Positions 1-8,588 of a stretch of DNA of 64,000 bases are shown in pieces; position 1 is the stretch's first letter; each line of letters starts with the position of its first letter. Under the pieces are notes generated by a model that saw only the letters and a program-made list of their open reading frames with translations, had not been told where the DNA came from and searched no databases. The position numbers and the translations under genes are program-made. Source of the DNA: Escherichia phage VEcB; the sequence record NC_052663.1. One strand, 5' to 3'.

Positions 1-302
1 TCGCTCGTTTTACAGGAACAGAAAAAGAAACGATTAATACATACGTTGGATTAAATAAAACATTCGACGTATTCTTTTATAATTTGTGTCTACAATCCGA
101 TCAGGCAGTAGCACAGTTACTTAACGTTTTCCCGATCCTAAGTAGTTATCGCTTAGGTGCGAAAGCGGGTGCAGCCTTTGGTTTCACTTCCTATTATGCC
201 ACAACTCCACCTCATGGTATAGGTGGTTTAGGTTCTCTTTACACAGAGGCTGAAGGAGATGATACAGGGCGAATGACTATGCTGATAGCTCAAATAGAAT
301 AA
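1..302 (+). CDS. 3' end of an upstream gene entering the window (open frame from nt 3, no stop until 302); probably a structural/tail protein
   Basis: Frame of ORF 84..302 stays open back to the window edge; lies directly upstream of the tail fibre module. Confidence 0.35.
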   Translation, partial: ARFTGTEKETINTYVGLNKTFDVFFYNLCLQSDQAVAQLLNVFPILSSYRLGAKAGAAFGFTSYYATTPPHGIGGLGSLYTEAEGDDTGRMTMLIAQIE

Positions 303-315
303 GGAGTTACTCTTA

Positions 316-1299
316 ATGGCAAAGCCACAATACTACCCTGACTGGGCGACACAAACAGTAACCCTCCCAGGAACGGGAAACACAAACAAGATTAGACCAA
401 AAGAAACCATCCGTAATGTTGGTATGGACTTTGGTCAGATTATGACTTGTGAAGAAATGAACTGGATCTTAAACAATATTGGGTCTTGGATTCGCTATAT
501 GCAAGATGAATTCTTCCCAACATTGCCTACTACATATCTTCCTATAGTCGGTACTAAAATTACAATGGCAGGTGATGCTACAGGTGAAGTTACATGGAAT
601 GGTAATGCTGCTGTAACATTATCTATTCAAGTCGTAGATAACAGCCATAATCACTTATCAGCTAACATTACAGACGCAACATCAAACCAAGTTGTAGGGA
701 ACGTCCTTGTTAAGCGTGATAATGGTGGTGCTATCTATGCAGGTGATATTTACACTTGTGGTACAGGTGCTACAGATCCTGCAACATTATTCTTTAGAAA
801 CTACAACGGACAAACAGTAGGTAATATGTCCTCTGAACCAGGTGCAGGTGGTCAACTCTATATTTATAGAATGAATCCATCAACTGGGGGAACATCTTGT
901 GCAGTCCGTTTATATGATGCAGGTTATGTTTTAATAGACAATCCTCGTTCTAATTCTGGTCAAGATACTGGTAATGGTAATGCTCTTGTAAGATTAGACT
1001 ATCTTAACTCCAGACTAAACTCATTGCAAAGCACACTGCAAAATAATATTAACAACGTTAATAGTAACTTGCAAGGCCAAATTAATAGCATTAACAATAG
1101 AGTTTCTTCTGTTGTGTCTGCTATCCGTCTTGGAACACGTATCCAAGCTGGTGTGTCTGAGTCTCGTTTCTATGCTGGTCACGTGATCACAGGTTGGGGT
1201 TTTGGTGACAAGAAAGAACTTCGTGGTGCTTGGTATTGGTCAGCCCCGCTACAATATTATATTAATGGTAGCTGGATAACAGTAACCAACGTTTCGTAA
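316..1299 (+). CDS. Putative tail fibre / receptor-binding protein with central coiled coil
   Basis: AAGGAG RBS; heptad-like segment DYLNSRLNSLQSTLQNNINNVNSNLQGQINSINNRV; followed by a tail fibre assembly gene. Confidence 0.5.
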   Translation: MAKPQYYPDWATQTVTLPGTGNTNKIRPKETIRNVGMDFGQIMTCEEMNWILNNIGSWIRYMQDEFFPTLPTTYLPIVGTKITMAGDATGEVTWNGNAAVTLSIQVVDNSHNHLSANITDATSNQVVGNVLVKRDNGGAIYAGDIYTCGTGATDPATLFFRNYNGQTVGNMSSEPGAGGQLYIYRMNPSTGGTSCAVRLYDAGYVLIDNPRSNSGQDTGNGNALVRLDYLNSRLNSLQSTLQNNINNVNSNLQGQINSINNRVSSVVSAIRLGTRIQAGVSESRFYAGHVITGWGFGDKKELRGAWYWSAPLQYYINGSWITVTNVS

Positions 1300-1308
1300 G
1301 GAGAGTCT

Positions 1309-1860
1309 ATGAAAAAAGATGTTATTTTTACAGGTTTTGAATTGTATGAACCAGAATTAACAGAAGAAAATATTCTTTATCTTTCTGTTGGTGGTGGTTT
1401 TTTGCAAGACAAAGATGGTAACGACTGGTATCAGCTTCAAAAAACTTTGATGGTAGAATATCCCGACGCTTATTTTATTACCTTAGATGATAATAATATT
1501 GTACGTGGTGCTACTAAAGATGTTACTACCTATTTCCCTGCCGGACAATCTATTTTAGTTACATATAATGTACCAGATAAAATAGAAGATGAAAGTAACA
1601 TTGGCTCTTGGCAATATGTTGAAGGTAAGTTTGTTCCTCACAATAATCTTGCTATTGAAGATGCTACTCTTAAGTTAGAAAAGGAGCTAACTTGGGCTAC
1701 GAATCAAGTGTCTGCGATTCAAGATTTAGAGGAATTACAAGGTTTATCTGAAGAACAAAAAGATTGGTTAGGAAAAGTTAAACTCTATCGTGCAACATTA
1801 ATTCAAATTAACGTTGAAGATGCACCTAATATAACTTGGCCTACAAGACCTAAGAAATAG
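1309..1860 (+). CDS. Tail fibre assembly protein (Tfa-like chaperone)
   Basis: C-terminal region (KLYRATLIQINVEDAPNITWPTRP) resembles the conserved C-terminus of lambda-type Tfa proteins; sits between fibre genes. Confidence 0.5.
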   Translation: MKKDVIFTGFELYEPELTEENILYLSVGGGFLQDKDGNDWYQLQKTLMVEYPDAYFITLDDNNIVRGATKDVTTYFPAGQSILVTYNVPDKIEDESNIGSWQYVEGKFVPHNNLAIEDATLKLEKELTWATNQVSAIQDLEELQGLSEEQKDWLGKVKLYRATLIQINVEDAPNITWPTRPKK

Positions 1861-1869
1861 GGGCAATGT

Positions 1870-2211
1870 ATGGAGCTAACAGAAGTATGGGATATCGCTA
1901 AAGAGGCGATTATCCCTCTTATTGGCGTAATCTGGGTGGTCTTCAAACAGAAGATAGATGATATGGCAAGTGATTTGGATAAAATGGAAGACAAATACCG
2001 CGAACTAGAAAAGAAGTTGGTGTTTGTTGAATCCACTTATGCTACCAAAGCAGAACTTGCTCAAATGCTTAACCAGATCAACTCTACATTAATGGCAAAT
2101 AATACTGCCTTAGAACAGAAGATTGAAAAAATAATGGATTTAAAAAATGCTCCTGTTCAATTAATGCTAGAGGAGATTACAAAGCGCACACAAAGTAAGG
2201 ACAAAAATTAA
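1870..2211 (+). CDS. Small protein with N-terminal hydrophobic helix and coiled coil, function unknown
   Basis: ORF track; N-terminal IIPLIGVIWVVF segment then charged coiled-coil-like sequence. Confidence 0.3.
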   Translation: MELTEVWDIAKEAIIPLIGVIWVVFKQKIDDMASDLDKMEDKYRELEKKLVFVESTYATKAELAQMLNQINSTLMANNTALEQKIEKIMDLKNAPVQLMLEEITKRTQSKDKN

Positions 2212-4625
2212 TGGCGAATTTTCCAACATATCCTGCTACGACACTAGAACAAGGTGTTGATCTGGTTATATTCTCGTCTAACCAGATGCATGATGTTATT
2301 AATGGAGATGCTACAGCAACTGTAGAAACCGAAACAGGTTTAATACCTACACTGCGTAAAGCACTTGTTGATAACTTCTTCTTTAAGAGTCCTGTTGCTT
2401 GGTCAGCAGGATCAACTGAAACTGTATTTAACCAGTTACGTTATTTTGAAAACGGTATCTTGAGTGGGTACTATTATGCCCCATCTGCCACTACTGCGAA
2501 CCCTGTACCTATGCAGGGCACACCTGTAGGAGACAGTAACTGGACTCTGTACGCTCTTAAAACTGAACAGTTAGCTTCAGATGTGTATCCTTGGTATTTT
2601 AAAGGTGCTACAGGATATGAAACAGAAATCAGTCCTCCTTATATCTTTGATAATGCTATTGTCACCATTAACGGTGTAATTCAGATTCAAGGTGAAGCAT
2701 TTACTATCAGAGATAGTAAAATTATTCTGGCAGAACCATTAGGTTTAGATCCGTCTACTGGTCTACCTAACAAATTGTTTGCTTTTATTGGTAAAACAAC
2801 AGCCTCTACTTCTTACGTAGAGAAAAACCTTTTGTCATCTACCACTGGTGCAGCAATGGTTGGTCTTCCATCTGGAGGCAACCTGTTACAAGCTCAATAC
2901 TTTGTAACGCCTGAGCAGTTTGGTGCAATTGGTGATGGAGTTACCGATGATACTCAAGCAATTTTAAAAACTATTACTTTCGCTAACACGAATAACATTC
3001 AAGTACGTGCAGATAAGAATTATAGATTCACAAGCTCAATTGCTATGTCTGGTATTCGTTGGTATGGTGGTACATTCACTGGTAACGGTGGAACAATGAT
3101 TTCTACTGTGTCCTGTTGGATGGAAAACGTTCGCTTTGAAAAATGTTATGTTAAGATGTTAGGTGGTGATTGCCGATTCTATCGTAATATCTTCTCCAAC
3201 GCAACATCTACAGCAGCATTCTTAATGCAAGCAATGACAAGTGAAGGTACGTTGGACTTCAGTTACAACGAAATGTATGGTTGTAAATATGCGATCCTGC
3301 AACAAGGTACTGGAGAAGTAATGACCTATGGGCGTTACTCTAACAACTATATTCACGATATCAAAGGTGATGCTATTGAACTTAACGTAGTTCAAAAACA
3401 CTACACTGAAGGTTTGATTATCGAGAATAACCACATTGCTAACGTAGATGCTTCTGGACAAGGGGCAAACTGGGGTATTGGTATTGGTGTAGCAGGTAGT
3501 GGCCCATATGGTGTTGATGTTCCTGATTCACAATATGTACGTAATTTCAGTATCGTTGGGAATAGGGTTTACAATTGCCGTCAATGTTTACACGTTGAAA
3601 TGGGTAAAAACTTCACAATACGTGATAATGAAGTTTATCCTAACACAGCAGTTTCAACAGGTACAGGTTTAACTACTTGTGGTGTTGCATTATACGGATG
3701 CCAAGATTTTGAAGTTGATGGTTTAACTGGTTATCTGCTCAATGATCCTTCTGTTTCAACACGTATGGTCTTTATTGACTGGGGTGTTAACAGTGGAAGA
3801 TATGCGGGGCCACCAATTAACTTTACAATTAAGAATTTGGATATTCCAGAATCTTCAATTGAGATTGCAACATCTGGATCAGATGCCTGGGAAAACTCTA
3901 CAATTGTTAGTAATATCAATTGTAATGTTTTTAAATGGCGTGGGCTACCATCTAGCTCTACCTTTAATAATATTCGTTGCCGTAGTATTGACTTTATTGG
4001 TCAACACGGAAGCGGAGAAGGAAGTGGTGGCGGTTTCTATACTCGCAGCCAATTCACGTATATGAAGTGGGTAGGATGTACAGCACTTAGCGGAGATGAA
4101 ACAACAGTTTCTTTTGCTAAAATCTACACTGATCGTTGCGATCAGGTTGGAAATAACTTTGGTGTTCCAACTGCTGTTGATGGTACAGGTCATCGTGGGC
4201 CAGTTTTAACTACTATTTCTGAACAATATTTTACAACTTATGATGAATTCCCAGGTGGGCGTGAATTCCCTACTGGAACAGTTATTCATTGTGCAAGCGG
4301 TAAAAAACATGTTGTTACAGTAGGTGGTGCTTTCTTTAGTGCCAACGAGAAAATAAAAGCAACTGTTACAGGTCAAACCTATCTACAGTCTAATGCTTTA
4401 AACTGGGCTAGTAATGGCTACGCTAAAGCAGCAGGTACTAAAATTGTTATTCCAGGTGCAGGTGCAAATGGCGGCGATCTTGTGACAACTATAGCACGTG
4501 CTACATATGTGACAAATAGTTTGTACACAATAGATATTGCAGATCCAATTGTAACACCTACAGCAGAGAATACACAAATCAAAGCTCTGAACCCTGTTAC
4601 TTTTGTTACTGTCAATAATGCTTAA
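2211..4625 (+). CDS. Tailspike / depolymerase with right-handed beta-helix (pectate-lyase-like) domain
   Basis: 804 aa; motif QFGAIGDGVTDDTQAILK typical of the N-terminus of pectate-lyase-fold beta-helices; repetitive G/N/T-rich beta-strand-like sequence; hairpin terminator downstream. Confidence 0.65.
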   Translation: MANFPTYPATTLEQGVDLVIFSSNQMHDVINGDATATVETETGLIPTLRKALVDNFFFKSPVAWSAGSTETVFNQLRYFENGILSGYYYAPSATTANPVPMQGTPVGDSNWTLYALKTEQLASDVYPWYFKGATGYETEISPPYIFDNAIVTINGVIQIQGEAFTIRDSKIILAEPLGLDPSTGLPNKLFAFIGKTTASTSYVEKNLLSSTTGAAMVGLPSGGNLLQAQYFVTPEQFGAIGDGVTDDTQAILKTITFANTNNIQVRADKNYRFTSSIAMSGIRWYGGTFTGNGGTMISTVSCWMENVRFEKCYVKMLGGDCRFYRNIFSNATSTAAFLMQAMTSEGTLDFSYNEMYGCKYAILQQGTGEVMTYGRYSNNYIHDIKGDAIELNVVQKHYTEGLIIENNHIANVDASGQGANWGIGIGVAGSGPYGVDVPDSQYVRNFSIVGNRVYNCRQCLHVEMGKNFTIRDNEVYPNTAVSTGTGLTTCGVALYGCQDFEVDGLTGYLLNDPSVSTRMVFIDWGVNSGRYAGPPINFTIKNLDIPESSIEIATSGSDAWENSTIVSNINCNVFKWRGLPSSSTFNNIRCRSIDFIGQHGSGEGSGGGFYTRSQFTYMKWVGCTALSGDETTVSFAKIYTDRCDQVGNNFGVPTAVDGTGHRGPVLTTISEQYFTTYDEFPGGREFPTGTVIHCASGKKHVVTVGGAFFSANEKIKATVTGQTYLQSNALNWASNGYAKAAGTKIVIPGAGANGGDLVTTIARATYVTNSLYTIDIADPIVTPTAENTQIKALNPVTFVTVNNA

Positions 4626-4629
4626 TTAA

Positions 4630-4652
4630 AAAGGGGCGAAAGCCCCTTTATA
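4630..4652 (+). terminator. Rho-independent terminator after the tailspike gene
   Basis: GGGGC-GAAA-GCCCC hairpin then TTTA-rich tail. Confidence 0.5.
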
Positions 4653-4666
4653 AAAGGAGTAGTAAA

Positions 4667-6628
4667 GTGATTTTAACACGTCCAAATAGTGCCATTGCAG
4701 ACATGGTAGAGTCTCGCTATAGAAAGCGTAGAAGTTTTGCAAGTGGTTTTACCTTAAGAGATGCTCGTGAAGCATTGCTCTTTGAAACTGACGGTAACTA
4801 CTATCAGTGGAAAGGTTCTCTACCTAAAGTTGTACCTGCTAACTCTACTCCTACATCTACTGGAGGGATTTCAGATACAGCTTGGAAAAATGTGGGTAAT
4901 GCAGATGACATTGCTCAAATAGAATCAGAATTAGATGCTATTGAAGCTGAAATTGAAGATCTTAGAGAATCCATTCCAGAAGCTGGTAAATCAGCTTACC
5001 AGATTGCCGTAGACAATGGTTTCCAAGGTGCTGAGACAGACTGGTTGGCTTCTTTAAAAGGTGATCCAGGTGCTCCATTAAAGCTGCTAGGGACGCTATC
5101 TAATACCAACCAATTACCTACAACCGGAAACAATGCAGGAGATGCATGGATTGTAGGAGAAAATATGTATGCTTGGGATGGTACTGCTTGGAGAAAAGTA
5201 AACTCACAGGGGCCAGAAGGTAAATCAGCTTATCAAGTTTGGCTTGCAGCAGGAAACCAAGGTACAGAACTAGATTATCTTGCTTCAATTAAAGGTGATA
5301 AAGGGGAACCTGGCCCAGAGGGGCCACAAGGTGTACCAGGTAACAATGCTAATGGTTTTGATTACCAAGGTGCAGCTAATTCCGTTTCAGATCTTCCTTC
5401 TGCATCTCCTGGAAACACATCTCAAGCATGGAGTATTGGTACATATCTATACGTGTCAAACGGTGTAGAATGGATCAATATGGGCGCTATAGTGGGGCCA
5501 AAAGGAGATAAAGGCGACAAAGGAGATAAGGGTAACACTGGTGATTCAGCTTATCAAGTCTGGTTAAACGCTGGTAACGTTGGTACTATTGACGAATATA
5601 TTGCCTCTCTGAAAGGAGAAAAAGGTGATAAGGGAGACAAGGGTGATCAAGGTGAGCAGGGTATACAAGGCTTGACGGGGCCAACTGGTGCAGGGTTGAC
5701 CATTATTGATATTCTGACTGACACTTCTGAACTACCACAAACTGGAGAAGATGGTGATGGTTATCTGATCAATAATGAACTTTGGGTTTGGTTGCAAGGA
5801 GCCACACAGTGGACAAATGTTGGTCGTTTAGCTGGTACTCCAATCACTGCAAAAGGACACGTTGCGTCTGCAAGTGCACTTCCTCCTACATCCAATTACG
5901 GTGATGCTTATCTAACGGAAGACACAGGTCATCTTTACATTTACACCTATGATGAACAAACTCAAACTGCTGAATATGTAGATATGGGTAGTTTGAAAGG
6001 TGATAAGGGTGAGAAAGGTGACGCTGGTACTAACGGTACGGATGGTGCAACTTGGATTGTTAAAACAACAGATCCAATCTCTAGTGATGGTAAACAAGGT
6101 GATTATGCCTTTAATATCTCCACTGGCGAGGTGTTCTTAAAAACATCTGCAACTGTCTGGACTTCTCAAGGTACACTACCTAGCATCACAGATGCACCTA
6201 GTGACGGTAAGATCTATGCTCGTAAAGATGGAGCATGGGAAGAACTAACTAGTTCTGTAGATGGTCAAGATATAGTTCCAACAAAAGTAACAGCTAATTT
6301 TATAGAGGTTACAGCATACACCAACAACTCTGTTATAGGTGACTGGACACCTCCAGGAACACATAACATGAATGTGTTGAATCTTACTGGTAACGCTACT
6401 ATAAAAGCATGGCCTGGTGTCGAAGATAGCACAAAACCTAAACCATTCTCTGCAATAGTTTATCTTATCCAAGATGCCACTGGAGGTCGTACTGTTACTT
6501 TAGATCCATCTTACAAAGTAATTGGTTCTAGTGATATTAATACAGATCCTAACGGAGTAACAATACTACAACTAACATATTGTGGTGTTGGCAATTACGT
6601 GGATGCTATTGTTGCTAAACGCACATAA
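4667..6628 (+). CDS. Tail fibre protein with collagen-like Gly-X-Y tracts and three copies of a ~35-aa repeat
   Basis: GTG start with AAAGGAG RBS; GDKGDKGDKGNTGDS, GEKGDKGDKGDQGEQGIQGLTGPTG; repeat SAYQ(I/V)..G..GTE.DYLAS(L/I)KG(D/E) present three times. Confidence 0.6.
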   Translation: MILTRPNSAIADMVESRYRKRRSFASGFTLRDAREALLFETDGNYYQWKGSLPKVVPANSTPTSTGGISDTAWKNVGNADDIAQIESELDAIEAEIEDLRESIPEAGKSAYQIAVDNGFQGAETDWLASLKGDPGAPLKLLGTLSNTNQLPTTGNNAGDAWIVGENMYAWDGTAWRKVNSQGPEGKSAYQVWLAAGNQGTELDYLASIKGDKGEPGPEGPQGVPGNNANGFDYQGAANSVSDLPSASPGNTSQAWSIGTYLYVSNGVEWINMGAIVGPKGDKGDKGDKGNTGDSAYQVWLNAGNVGTIDEYIASLKGEKGDKGDKGDQGEQGIQGLTGPTGAGLTIIDILTDTSELPQTGEDGDGYLINNELWVWLQGATQWTNVGRLAGTPITAKGHVASASALPPTSNYGDAYLTEDTGHLYIYTYDEQTQTAEYVDMGSLKGDKGEKGDAGTNGTDGATWIVKTTDPISSDGKQGDYAFNISTGEVFLKTSATVWTSQGTLPSITDAPSDGKIYARKDGAWEELTSSVDGQDIVPTKVTANFIEVTAYTNNSVIGDWTPPGTHNMNVLNLTGNATIKAWPGVEDSTKPKPFSAIVYLIQDATGGRTVTLDPSYKVIGSSDINTDPNGVTILQLTYCGVGNYVDAIVAKRT

Positions 6629-6631
6629 TCA

Positions 6632-6657
6632 AAGCCCCTTCGGGGGCTTATTATTTA
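6632..6657 (+). terminator. Rho-independent terminator after the collagen-like fibre gene
   Basis: GCCCC-TTCG-GGGGC hairpin followed by TTATTATTT. Confidence 0.55.
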
Positions 6658-6667
6658 AGGAGATTAA

Positions 6668-8554
6668 ATGTATCCTATTCCTTTATTTATGTCAACAACA
6701 TCAGCTTCAGTAGTAACAGCTACATCTATAACCACTTCCTCTATTGGTATTGCAATAGTTGGTAGTAAAAAGCAACTGACATACACAGTTTCACCGGAAG
6801 ATGGTGCGTTATTTGATATAGCTTTTTCATCTTCAGATAATACCAAAATGGTTATAGATAATAGTGGTATGATGGAGTTTGTTGCCGAAGGTGGTTTTGA
6901 TGCAATAATGACAGCTAAAAATAATTTAGGTGCTGTCTTAACTGATCAATCTGGTGGTTATGCTTCAGAATTAAGCGTGTACACTGAAAGTCTATCCGCT
7001 ATGGATGTAGGCACTACTCAACAGTTGGTTGCTACAATCAGTCCAGAAGGTGCTAAAGACCTTCCAGATATGGTAATTACATACACCACAACAGATCCAG
7101 AAGTAGCTACTGTAAGCCCTACAGGATTAATAACTGCTCTTAAAGATGGCAATTGCCGTATAGGTTGTACTGCAACGTATCAAGGAACAGTTGTGGCCTC
7201 TGATAGTTCTTATTTAGGTGTTAATGCTATTCCTGTTATTTCTAATGTAACAGCCGTGGCAAACAGTTATGGAGACGTTCGTGTTGCTTGGGATGTAACT
7301 GATCCACTAGACGGTGATACTTATACTGTAGAAGTATTAGATTTAAGTGATAATAGTGTTCAGTGGACTACAACAACCACGAATACTTACGCTTACTTTG
7401 ATATCTCTGACTCTATTCCTCTTTATGGGTTTGCTCCAACATACCTTAAAATTAGCGTTAAGAGCACCAAAGCAGCAGCCGTTATCTTTAATAACTCAAT
7501 AGCTACAGATGATTCGTTCATTAAAGAAGTTATTGTCTTTGCTGGACAAGATAACGTAAATGCACACTTTACAGAATTATCTGGTGCAAATAAAGCAGTA
7601 ATGAGTAGCACAACAACCCGTAATGCATATGCTACGCAACGTGGTTTAGCAAATGCTGAAGTTCTTCCGTTAAATACAGCTTCTGGATCATCAGCAGCAG
7701 ATAAATATGCTGACGATAAAGCTGGAACAGGTACACCAGACAACTACTGGTATGATCTGGATAACACAGCAGATGGGCCATGCTTAACTAACTTTATCAC
7801 TAAAGTCACACCTTATGCAAGTAAGGTTAAAGCAATTATTTGGGGACAAGGTGAAAATGATGCTGTATCAGCATCTTCGACTGTTGCAGGTAGGTACAGT
7901 AACACTACACGTTACCATGATGCTACGATAGCTATCTTTGATAAGATGCGTACAATAGTTCCTGCTTCTCAAGCAAAAATTGTTTGGCAGATCCTAGGAC
8001 GTTCTTATTTATATGGTGTAGAAGTTAATGGTGTGGATTGGCAGAAGTACAGAAATGTACAAAGAACCATCTCTACAGCACGTGATGATGTTATCATTGG
8101 TTCTTGGGTAGATGGTGCTGAACGTTACAGTGGTTATGTTTATGAAGAAGGTATTGATGGTCGTATCCATTATATTTCTTCTGTATATCAAACAGCAGCT
8201 ACAAAACTTGCTAAATCAGCAGCAGACGGTACAGATTTAACATCAACACCACCTGTTTGGGTTGATATGTCTGTTCCAACAGGAGGAGCCGCTGTAAGAC
8301 AAGCTAACCAAGATGCAATTATTTCTTGGGAACCAGCAGGATATACCAAACATTACTTCCGAAATGTAAACGTCCTCACAGCAGCAATTCTTACAGAACA
8401 AACTCTTGATACTAACACTTACACATTTACTTATGCAGATCAGGTTGAACAATACGGGTTTGCAGCAGGTACAGCAGTGTTTGATGTTGCACACTATGAT
8501 GCTGATAATGACGTGTTATCACCTCTTGTCAGATTTACAGTCAATGTTACATAA
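6668..8554 (+). CDS. Tail fibre/spike protein with Ig-like (Big_2-type) region and C-terminal SASA/SGNH-like carbohydrate esterase-like domain
   Basis: Big_2-like segment (PEVATVSPTGLITALKDGNCRIGCTA); C-terminal IIWGQGENDA resembles the W-x-QGE-(S/N)-D motif of sialate O-acetylesterase-like domains; upstream FAGQDNVN where GQSN would be expected. Confidence 0.45.
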   Translation: MYPIPLFMSTTSASVVTATSITTSSIGIAIVGSKKQLTYTVSPEDGALFDIAFSSSDNTKMVIDNSGMMEFVAEGGFDAIMTAKNNLGAVLTDQSGGYASELSVYTESLSAMDVGTTQQLVATISPEGAKDLPDMVITYTTTDPEVATVSPTGLITALKDGNCRIGCTATYQGTVVASDSSYLGVNAIPVISNVTAVANSYGDVRVAWDVTDPLDGDTYTVEVLDLSDNSVQWTTTTTNTYAYFDISDSIPLYGFAPTYLKISVKSTKAAAVIFNNSIATDDSFIKEVIVFAGQDNVNAHFTELSGANKAVMSSTTTRNAYATQRGLANAEVLPLNTASGSSAADKYADDKAGTGTPDNYWYDLDNTADGPCLTNFITKVTPYASKVKAIIWGQGENDAVSASSTVAGRYSNTTRYHDATIAIFDKMRTIVPASQAKIVWQILGRSYLYGVEVNGVDWQKYRNVQRTISTARDDVIIGSWVDGAERYSGYVYEEGIDGRIHYISSVYQTAATKLAKSAADGTDLTSTPPVWVDMSVPTGGAAVRQANQDAIISWEPAGYTKHYFRNVNVLTAAILTEQTLDTNTYTFTYADQVEQYGFAAGTAVFDVAHYDADNDVLSPLVRFTVNVT

Positions 8555-8559
8555 ACAAA

Positions 8560-8588
8560 AAGGAGCCAATAGGCTCCTTTTCTTTTAT
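8560..8588. terminator. Bidirectional terminator at the convergence of the + strand tail block and the - strand block
   Basis: GGAGCC-AATA-GGCTCC hairpin with T-tracts on both sides. Confidence 0.6.

Follow-up and report, generated by a model that had tools for sequence, protein, structure and literature searches.

Positions 316 to 8554 of a 64,000-nucleotide stretch of Escherichia phage VEcB (NC_052663.1; the whole stretch is called the window below) are the distal half of a phi92-like multivalent adsorption gene cluster. The window is part of a Justusliebigvirus genome (phi92-like myophage, Stephanstirmvirinae), and as a whole the module is not new. Its only undescribed detail lies in the last gene (6668-8554, + strand), whose 628-residue product contains an esterase-fold domain, related to gp65 of phage N4, with the catalytic serine replaced by aspartate. 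Informed by sequence comparison, structural models and analogy with other phage proteins, we lean cautiously towards an accessory receptor-binding protein, in which the esterase-derived domain would bind a surface glycan without hydrolysis or would serve as a structural pseudo-esterase. A preliminary description of this DNA had proposed that the domain may be catalytically altered or binding-only, and the comparative analysis favours that reading; its statements about the sequence itself were all borne out.

The last gene encodes an accessory tail protein that is the intact form of phi92 gp152 plus gp153. The AlphaFold2 (AF2) model of the full-length protein (predicted local distance difference test score, pLDDT, 92.0; predicted template modelling score, pTM, 0.73) has a disordered N-terminal peptide followed by beta-sandwiches at around residues 16-100, 103-186 and 190-277, an alpha/beta domain at around 285-526 and a final beta-sandwich at around 538-628. 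A separate model of residues 270-628 gave a pLDDT of 94.4 and a pTM of 0.90. The N-terminal 189 residues (6668..7234, this and the following domains all on the + strand) comprise a probable attachment peptide and two immunoglobulin-like (Ig-like) domains matching Big_2 (E 2.3e-12). Residues 190-270 (7235..7477) form an FN3-like domain, a beta-sandwich in the model, which corresponds to residues 619-716 of N4 gp65 by BLASTP and was delimited by hmmsearch as domain P0003/189-269. The SGNH/SASA-fold esterase-like domain (residues ~285-526; 7520..8245) was located with AF2 and Foldseek. It is followed by a C-terminal FN3-like domain (residues 538-628; 8279..8551), which gave FN3 matches in Foldseek and repeated matches to gp65 residues 1082-1171 and 1206-1276. 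Related to N4 gp65, the protein looks like a monomeric string of Ig, FN3 and SGNH domains and is not obviously a trimeric fibre. The Ig-like fibre with a SASA/SGNH-like domain that had been put forward earlier is borne out by the Big_2 match and by the predicted SGNH fold. Profile searches placed the whole protein in phrog_32204 (E=0) and, more distantly, in phrog_15324 (E 2e-40), which is annotated as 'tail sheath and receptor binding protein'; in GenBank it appears in a few records as 'tail carbohydrate esterase' or 'non-contractile tail sheath'.

Over its first ~190 residues, 27-30% of the query, the protein is 54-73% identical to others whose C-terminal domains are different, for example RCC1-type. 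A conserved N-terminal part with differing distal domains is the pattern expected of an attachment stalk with exchangeable tips, that is, of domain swapping. We note that the proteins sharing this stalk are 380-900 residues long and come from large (~140-155 kb) contigs; in them RCC1-type beta-propeller or DUF285-type domains replace the SGNH module.

Assignment of the esterase domain relies on structure prediction, fold search and homologues, because Pfam alone was insufficient. The SASA family (PF03629) matched the protein with 15.1 bits, below the gathering cut-off of 24.8. A homologue, P0116, passes that threshold with 31.9 bits, and the link of the 628-residue protein to SASA is thus transitive. 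When the model of residues 270-628 was searched against the PDB with Foldseek, N4 gp65 (9lc0) ranked first (E 6e-26, TM 0.77-0.78), followed by the XAC1771 acetylesterase (CE20), a dog sialate esterase, PatB, CE2 and GDSL esterases with E values from 6e-10 to 1e-4. The AF2 model and the Foldseek matches agree on the three-layer alpha/beta/alpha SGNH fold. Of the two enzyme folds that the preliminary description had offered for structural checking, the pectate-lyase-like beta-helix of a neighbouring tailspike is already solved and the second, the esterase fold, has a high-confidence prediction.

The active site departs from that of a canonical esterase at one position above all. Block I reads FAGQDNVN (residues 291-298; 7538..7561), where homologues have GQSN, and the nucleophilic serine of a GQSN or GDS motif is absent; Asp295 (GAT, 7550-7552) occupies the nucleophile position. 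In the AF2 model Asp295 sits at the junction of beta1 and alpha1 (strand 287-293, helix 295-301), where the nucleophile of SGNH enzymes normally lies. Block III (WxQGExD/N) is retained as GQGEND (residues 393-398; 7844..7861) within IIWGQGENDA (390-399), and the family alignment shows conservation of at least 90% at G395 and D398. The block V catalytic histidine position is likewise retained as His501 (8168..8170). The acidic residue at His-3 is absent from the protein and from most family members. Compared with SGNH/SASA acetylesterases (XAC1771/CE20, 7KMM; sialate O-acetylesterase, 8F9P; At4g34215, 2APJ) and with phage esterase tailspikes such as G7C gp63.1, the domain shares the fold, as predicted here, and keeps the block III WxQGExD and the block V His, but it differs in Asp295, in having no Asp at His-3 and in its sub-threshold SASA score.

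A word-indexed protein search with the C-terminal 359 residues returned only 2 matches, and an exhaustive representative search was used instead. This gave 75 cluster representatives of the C-terminal module, 66 domains of which span both block I and block V in the profile alignment. In block I, 53 of these have Ser, as had been expected from the GQSN motif when FAGQDNVN was first pointed out; 5 have Asp and 8 another residue, and the block V His is present in 55/66. The family profile has the consensus 'vfaGqSnaeaHF', which the printed alignment places opposite the GQSN of the SASA-type esterase 2APJ, a segment not significant alone; the block III segment of the same comparison is marginal (E 0.026). 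The serine majority in block I, this consensus and the supra-threshold SASA score of P0116 together indicate that the family descends from GQSN-type esterases. Asp at the nucleophile position is confined to the clade of Justusliebigvirus, which has GQDN, and to the sister clade of Avunavirus, which has GGDN; in these two it is found in 36/36 representatives, and Asn296 is invariant across the same 36. A sequencing error or strain mutation was considered as the origin of Asp295 and rejected, given its presence in all 36 representatives and a GAT codon at least two bases from any serine codon.

The Avunavirus homologues (Vequintavirinae; Av05_00106 of Av-05 and peg.55 of phage 18-1-2) are 645-647 residues long and have the same domain order, the same last-gene position and the Asp of GGDN. 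They are 42-46% identical to the 628-residue protein over the full length and ~49% over the C-terminal module. In this clade block III is changed to SLGEQDA and the histidine to Gln in 2/4 representatives. Across the family His is lost in 8/13 non-Ser domains versus 3/53 Ser domains (Fisher p=2.9e-5), and the central SGNH-like domain of E. coli N4 gp65 lacks Ser, block III and His. The joint loss of Ser and His, together with N4 gp65 and the Avunavirus changes, suggests that repeated active-site decay is apparently common in this family of phage tail proteins. The SGNH-fold domain is nevertheless under purifying selection, with a ratio of nonsynonymous to synonymous substitution rates (dN/dS) of 0.17; for the gene, compared with its long allele (described below), the ratio is 0.17-0.24.

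The relationship to N4 gp65 was also recovered from sequence. phmmer matched the protein to PDB 9lc0_I (N4 gp65) with E 2e-25, and BLASTP aligned residues 192-613 with gp65 residues 619-1062 and residues 277-451 with gp65 residues 428-603. The FN3/SGNH-like/FN3 module, ~420-460 residues, is shared with N4 gp65 (PDB 9LC0, 9YF4) and with ORF69 of Achromobacter phage phiAxp-3 at 21-24% identity (E 2e-16 to 2e-25). N4 gp65 has in addition NCTSP_N and TIM-barrel_NCTSP domains (PF23844, PF23845), whereas Pfam gave no match for either in the 628-residue protein, which has the N-terminal Ig-like domains instead and keeps the block III and His lost from the central domain in N4. Since the phage is contractile-tailed, the protein would not be able to build a sheath of the N4 type; the region analysed yielded no gp64-like partner. 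The homologue of phi92 gp142 in phage Paula, encoded at a position upstream of the window start, carries Calx-beta, NCTSP_N and a complete TIM-barrel_NCTSP (E 8e-82). With the NCTSP_N and TIM barrel on the gp142 homologue and the SGNH module on the last protein, the domain repertoire of the N4 sheath is split over two Justusliebigvirus proteins. According to database matches, the C-terminal module is confined to Justusliebigvirus, Avunavirus and the gp65 proteins of N4-like phages that infect E. coli, Achromobacter, Delftia and Pseudomonas. We found no discussion of the gp65 homology of the last protein in the searchable literature.

A division of domains is also seen in N4 itself (EF056009.1). 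Residues 374-416 of gp65 match only positions 4-46 of the TIM-barrel_NCTSP model and residues 109-407 of gp64 match positions 60-347; gp65 residues 431-605 match SGNH blocks I-III (GESQ, GQGDQDA) and gp64 residues 11-76 match the block V portion of the domain (GQIHF). From these sequence matches the gp64/gp65 sheath heterodimer of N4 appears to be built from split domains.

Two observations on relatives bear on function. N4 uses gp65 as its receptor-binding protein (PMC13434306), and in the phiAxp-3 sheath protein ORF69 residues 795-1195 suffice for lipopolysaccharide (LPS) binding and adsorption competition (PMC5862860). Residues 281-627 of the 628-residue protein align with ORF69 residues 728-1088 (24% identity, E 5e-23), overlapping that LPS-binding fragment.

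The last gene exists in two allele classes, one of 628 residues and one of 936-939 residues with an additional distal domain of 311 residues, each in roughly half of the database genomes; the short allele is present in about 26 database records. The 311-residue extension is ~62% identical to Phapecoctavirus sequences and distantly related to siphophage and cyanophage tail proteins, those of Kagunavirus and RcapMu among them. In ALITA the extension is split off as a separate open reading frame (ORF). Compared with Paula, the synonymous substitution rate (dS) is 0.03-0.09 upstream and 1.14 for residues 529-628, with divergence jumping after about residue 528, and alignment of the DNA to Paula places the end of the short allele cleanly at a stop codon just before a shared terminator. 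The jump in dS points to a mosaic 3′ end and not to a deletion. The short allele as a simple truncation of the long one was accordingly rejected, on both the dS of 1.14 beyond about residue 528 and the clean stop. In phi92 (FR775895.2) a 226-bp deletion and a downstream 2-bp insertion have broken the gene into gp152 and gp153; the deletion takes out the greater part of the FN3-like domain (window ~7260-7485). The intact protein was therefore not there to be observed in structural work on phi92. The gene has its own ribosome-binding site (AAGGAG, 6657-6662) and, with terminator-like hairpins on both sides, looks like a self-contained cassette in sequence. It behaves as an old but dispensable accessory cassette. 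Two papers on Justusliebigvirus (PMC12695924, PMC12210895) mention no esterase domain; one of them notes a 939-residue tail fibre absent from phi92.

On the reading to which we incline, the N-terminal peptide and the two Ig-like domains would provide attachment and a stalk, in a protein built as beads on a string. The SGNH-fold domain would derive from a GQSN-type carbohydrate acetylesterase that lost its serine nucleophile by the change to Asp295, and it may now be a non-hydrolytic carbohydrate-binding or structural module that holds a surface glycan without removing acetyl groups. Several points weigh against this. Asp295, Asn296, the block III GENDA and His501 are all kept in the Justusliebigvirus clade, where the residues of a dead site might drift; an altered chemistry or contact with a particular ligand is thus possible. 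Behind the analogy with phiAxp-3 stand 24% identity and truncations with end points inside a domain, and the disruption in phi92 means that some hosts, at least, can be infected without the gene. Recognition of the N4 glycan receptor (NGR) has moreover been assigned to the gp142-type protein, which contains the NGR-linked motif GMSHY (bioRxiv 10.64898/2026.04.02.716166), and phage Eryne, a carrier of the short allele, uses NGR poorly (PMC11984140). The alternatives that follow overlap with this reading and with one another, and the confidence placed in them does not sum to one.

The alternative that survives best, though we still consider it unlikely, gives the SGNH-like and FN3 domains no more than a supporting or spacing part, like that of the N4 sheath wall. 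The receptor would then be contacted through the Ig-like domains or through the 311-residue extension of the long allele, and the short allele would be an accessory gene without a tip, reduced in function or decaying. A shared distal extension of this kind is typical of a swappable receptor-binding tip, the central SGNH-like domain of N4 gp65 has no catalytic residue at all, and the lesions in phi92 and the split extension in ALITA fit a gene in decay. The short allele does not itself look decayed, however: it stops cleanly before the shared terminator, recurs in about 26 database records and is under purifying selection. The Avunavirus homologues, at 645-647 residues, are without the extension too, so the short architecture is old and stable.

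It is less probable again that the last protein is a second receptor-binding protein for NfrA/NGR, the receptor-binding protein of N4 being split in these phages over the gp142-like protein and the last protein. Justusliebigvirus and N4 both depend on the NGR pathway genes nfrA/nfrB/wecB (PMC8669472, PMC11990801), the restricted distribution of the C-terminal module joins the same phage groups, and the gp142 homologue carries the remaining gp65/gp64 domains (NCTSP_N, TIM barrel). Vequintavirus phages need NGR as well, yet are absent from the matches to the module. The phi92-type disruption, and the weak use of NGR by Eryne despite an intact short allele, oppose an essential role in NGR recognition, and the published GMSHY motif lies in the gp142-type protein.

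That the SGNH domain is still an enzyme strikes us as quite doubtful. Asp295 would be the nucleophile, or a general base activating water together with His501, and the protein would be a glycan-modifying deacetylase or esterase like the G7C-type tailspikes. Aspartate nucleophiles paired with histidine do work in other hydrolase folds, those of the haloalkane dehalogenases and epoxide hydrolases. Invariance of Asp295 and Asn296 in 36 representatives that have diverged to 42-46% full-length identity speaks for such an enzyme, as do GQGEND and His501 in all Justusliebigvirus alleles and the dN/dS of 0.17. We know of no SGNH-fold enzyme with an aspartate nucleophile, however. In the sister clade the Asp coexists with the change of His to Gln and with an altered block III, and is thus independent of the catalytic His; across the family, moreover, loss of Ser goes with loss of His. 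A more specific proposal, in which an Asp-His pair would act on a substituent of a conserved enterobacterial glycan, by hydrolysis or transfer, and Asp295 would mark an undescribed SGNH variant extending from Justusliebigvirus to Avunavirus, earns comparably slight credence. Identity of the last protein with the unresolved 'fiber II' of phi92 was rejected because the phi92 copy is disrupted.

The accessory receptor-binding protein proposed here stands at the end of a series of four large fibre and spike genes, as had been described from the outset; all four are on the + strand. The first encodes a short tail fibre of 327 residues (316-1299), homologous to phi92 gp147 ('fiber III'); it belongs to phrog_4465 (E 2e-108), the Paula annotation names Phi92_gp147, and at its N-terminus the protein matches 9cuy_c, a short tail fibre chain. 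The earlier label of 'coiled-coil fibre' is only partly apt for a short tail fibre: heptad-like spacing is found around residues 243-272, within a Leu/Ile/Val-rich stretch at ~224-270, by a crude count of a/d positions and not by a calibrated coiled-coil predictor. Two small genes that went unmentioned in the preliminary description lie between the first and second large ORFs. One encodes a tail fibre assembly chaperone of 183 residues (1309-1860, + strand; gp148 homologue; Caudo_TAP in Pfam with 39.6 bits, the cut-off being 22.1; phrog_136, E 2e-39). A fibre gene followed by a Caudo_TAP chaperone gene constitutes a pair of the Mu gpS/gpU type, and homology shows the 327-residue protein to be a Mu-gpS-type short tail fibre with chaperone, predicted from sequence to mediate final cell-surface binding. 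From cryo-EM of phi92, gp147 is 'fiber III', displayed on the baseplate, with a proposed role in irreversible binding (PMC13450770); the short fibre and chaperone have been related to Mu gpS/gpU, with binding to the LPS outer core proposed and not to a polysaccharide capsule (PMC8594841). The other small gene (1870-2211, + strand) encodes a gp149 homologue of 113 residues with a hydrophobic N-terminal stretch and heptad-like spacing, which matches phrog_15210 ('lipoprotein', E 2e-70) and, weakly, Rz-like spanins. Its stop codon overlaps the start codon of the next gene in the sequence TAATG.

That next gene (2211-4625, + strand) encodes a colanidase tailspike of 804 residues, homologous to gp150, with an N-terminal particle-binding part, a beta-helix enzyme and a C-terminal Ig-like domain. 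Residues 180-804 match the crystal structure of phi92 gp150 (PDB 6E0V; E=0, 1428 bits), so that the pectate-lyase-fold tailspike recognised earlier corresponds to a beta-helix already solved. Pectate-lyase-like matches in Pfam are weak; the protein matches phrog_6117 ('colanic acid degradation', E 1.7e-269) and TSP_Ig-like (E 2e-14). By homology the 804-residue protein is shown to be a colanidase tailspike, and from its sequence it would cut colanic acid.

The third large gene (4667-6628, + strand) encodes a fibre of 653 residues, the gp151 homologue (phrog_15437, E=0), with a Tail_spike_N anchor (PF18668; E 3.6e-21, 75.5 bits against 25), three SAYQ...KGDxG units and four G-X-Y runs (residues 210-227, 277-294, 317-343 and 445-462). 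The collagen-like character and the thrice-repeated unit of ~35 residues noticed earlier both hold: the Pfam Collagen match, with 32.5 bits, passes its threshold of 27.2, and a ~30-35-residue unit, 'G(K/D)SAYQ...(L/I)AS(L/I)KG(D/E)xG', occurs three times, starting at residues 109, 187 and 294, with identity at up to 15-17 of 25 positions. The N-terminal domain is common to CBA120-type tailspikes in the PDB, and homology of sequence identifies the protein as a collagen-like fibre with a CBA120/G7C-type N-terminal anchor domain. Between this gene and the last one, a consensus scan located a terminator-like hairpin on the + strand (6632..6649; 7-bp stem with 5 GC pairs, then ATTATTT), which is probably a terminator.

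A second, bidirectional terminator-like hairpin (8558..8581), found by a scan of both strands (10-11 bp stems), closes the fibre cluster; it is kept in Paula and phi92 and is annotated as a terminator in Paula. Past the end of the cluster the genes are on the - strand. GC skew changes sign at ~8.5 kb and at ~47-48 kb, the first flip coinciding with the switch of coding strand that ends the fibre cluster. Scans of the 64-kb window found no tRNA genes and no Rfam families, and promoter-like sites showed no excess (28 against 25.2 +/- 5.3 in shuffled controls). At the other end, the window start cuts a baseplate wedge gene, the 3′ end of which (1..302, + strand; gp146 homologue) agrees in position with the gp146 homologue of Paula; the ORF fragment at 84-302 matches positions 141-218 of 219 in phrog_4056 ('baseplate protein'). 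The gp141/gp142-type fibres belong to the same cluster upstream of the window start, the upstream half, gp141 to gp146, lying outside the window.

Across the full 316-8554 stretch the nucleotide identity to Escherichia phage outra is 99.2%, and more than 50 annotated Justusliebigvirus genomes match it at 97-99% over 100% of its length. This identity to annotated genomes supports the six ORFs as real genes. GenBank already holds proteins 97-100% identical to those of the cluster. Synteny and homology agree in the annotation of Paula, which links the genes one-to-one with phi92 gp147, gp148, gp149, gp150 and gp151; the gene that follows is a 'putative tail component protein' with its best match in phage PHB05, not phi92. 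Gene order is shared between phi92 and the window, the proteins are near-identical for gp147-gp151 and the flanks are alike (gp146 upstream and, on the opposite strand, gp154/gp155 downstream). E. coli Justusliebigvirus genomes also share 98-99% identity in this region with database records that bear the names 'Campylobacter phage' A150, C3 and A110a and 'Serratia phage KKP_3264'; this suggests either very broad host labels or carry-over or mislabelling in those records.

phi92 is reportedly the subject of work by Schwarzer et al. in 2012 that described a multivalent 'Swiss army knife' adsorption apparatus. Phages of this type are now the textbook case of multivalent adsorption, with several co-expressed tailspikes and fibres (PMC11984140, PMC11990801; published models also in PMC13450770), and the branched adhesin apparatus for several polysaccharides suggested in the preliminary description matches this published view (PMC13450770, PMC11984140, PMC11990801).

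Against this background the last protein stands apart, in that its intact form is missing from the type phage and hence lies outside all phi92 structural work. If it is indeed a lectin-like pseudo-esterase, it would be a clear case of an enzyme domain recycled for binding in phage host recognition, and would be relevant to genome-based receptor prediction and to host-range engineering. The protein could also be of use in working out the ligand of the central region in N4 gp65.

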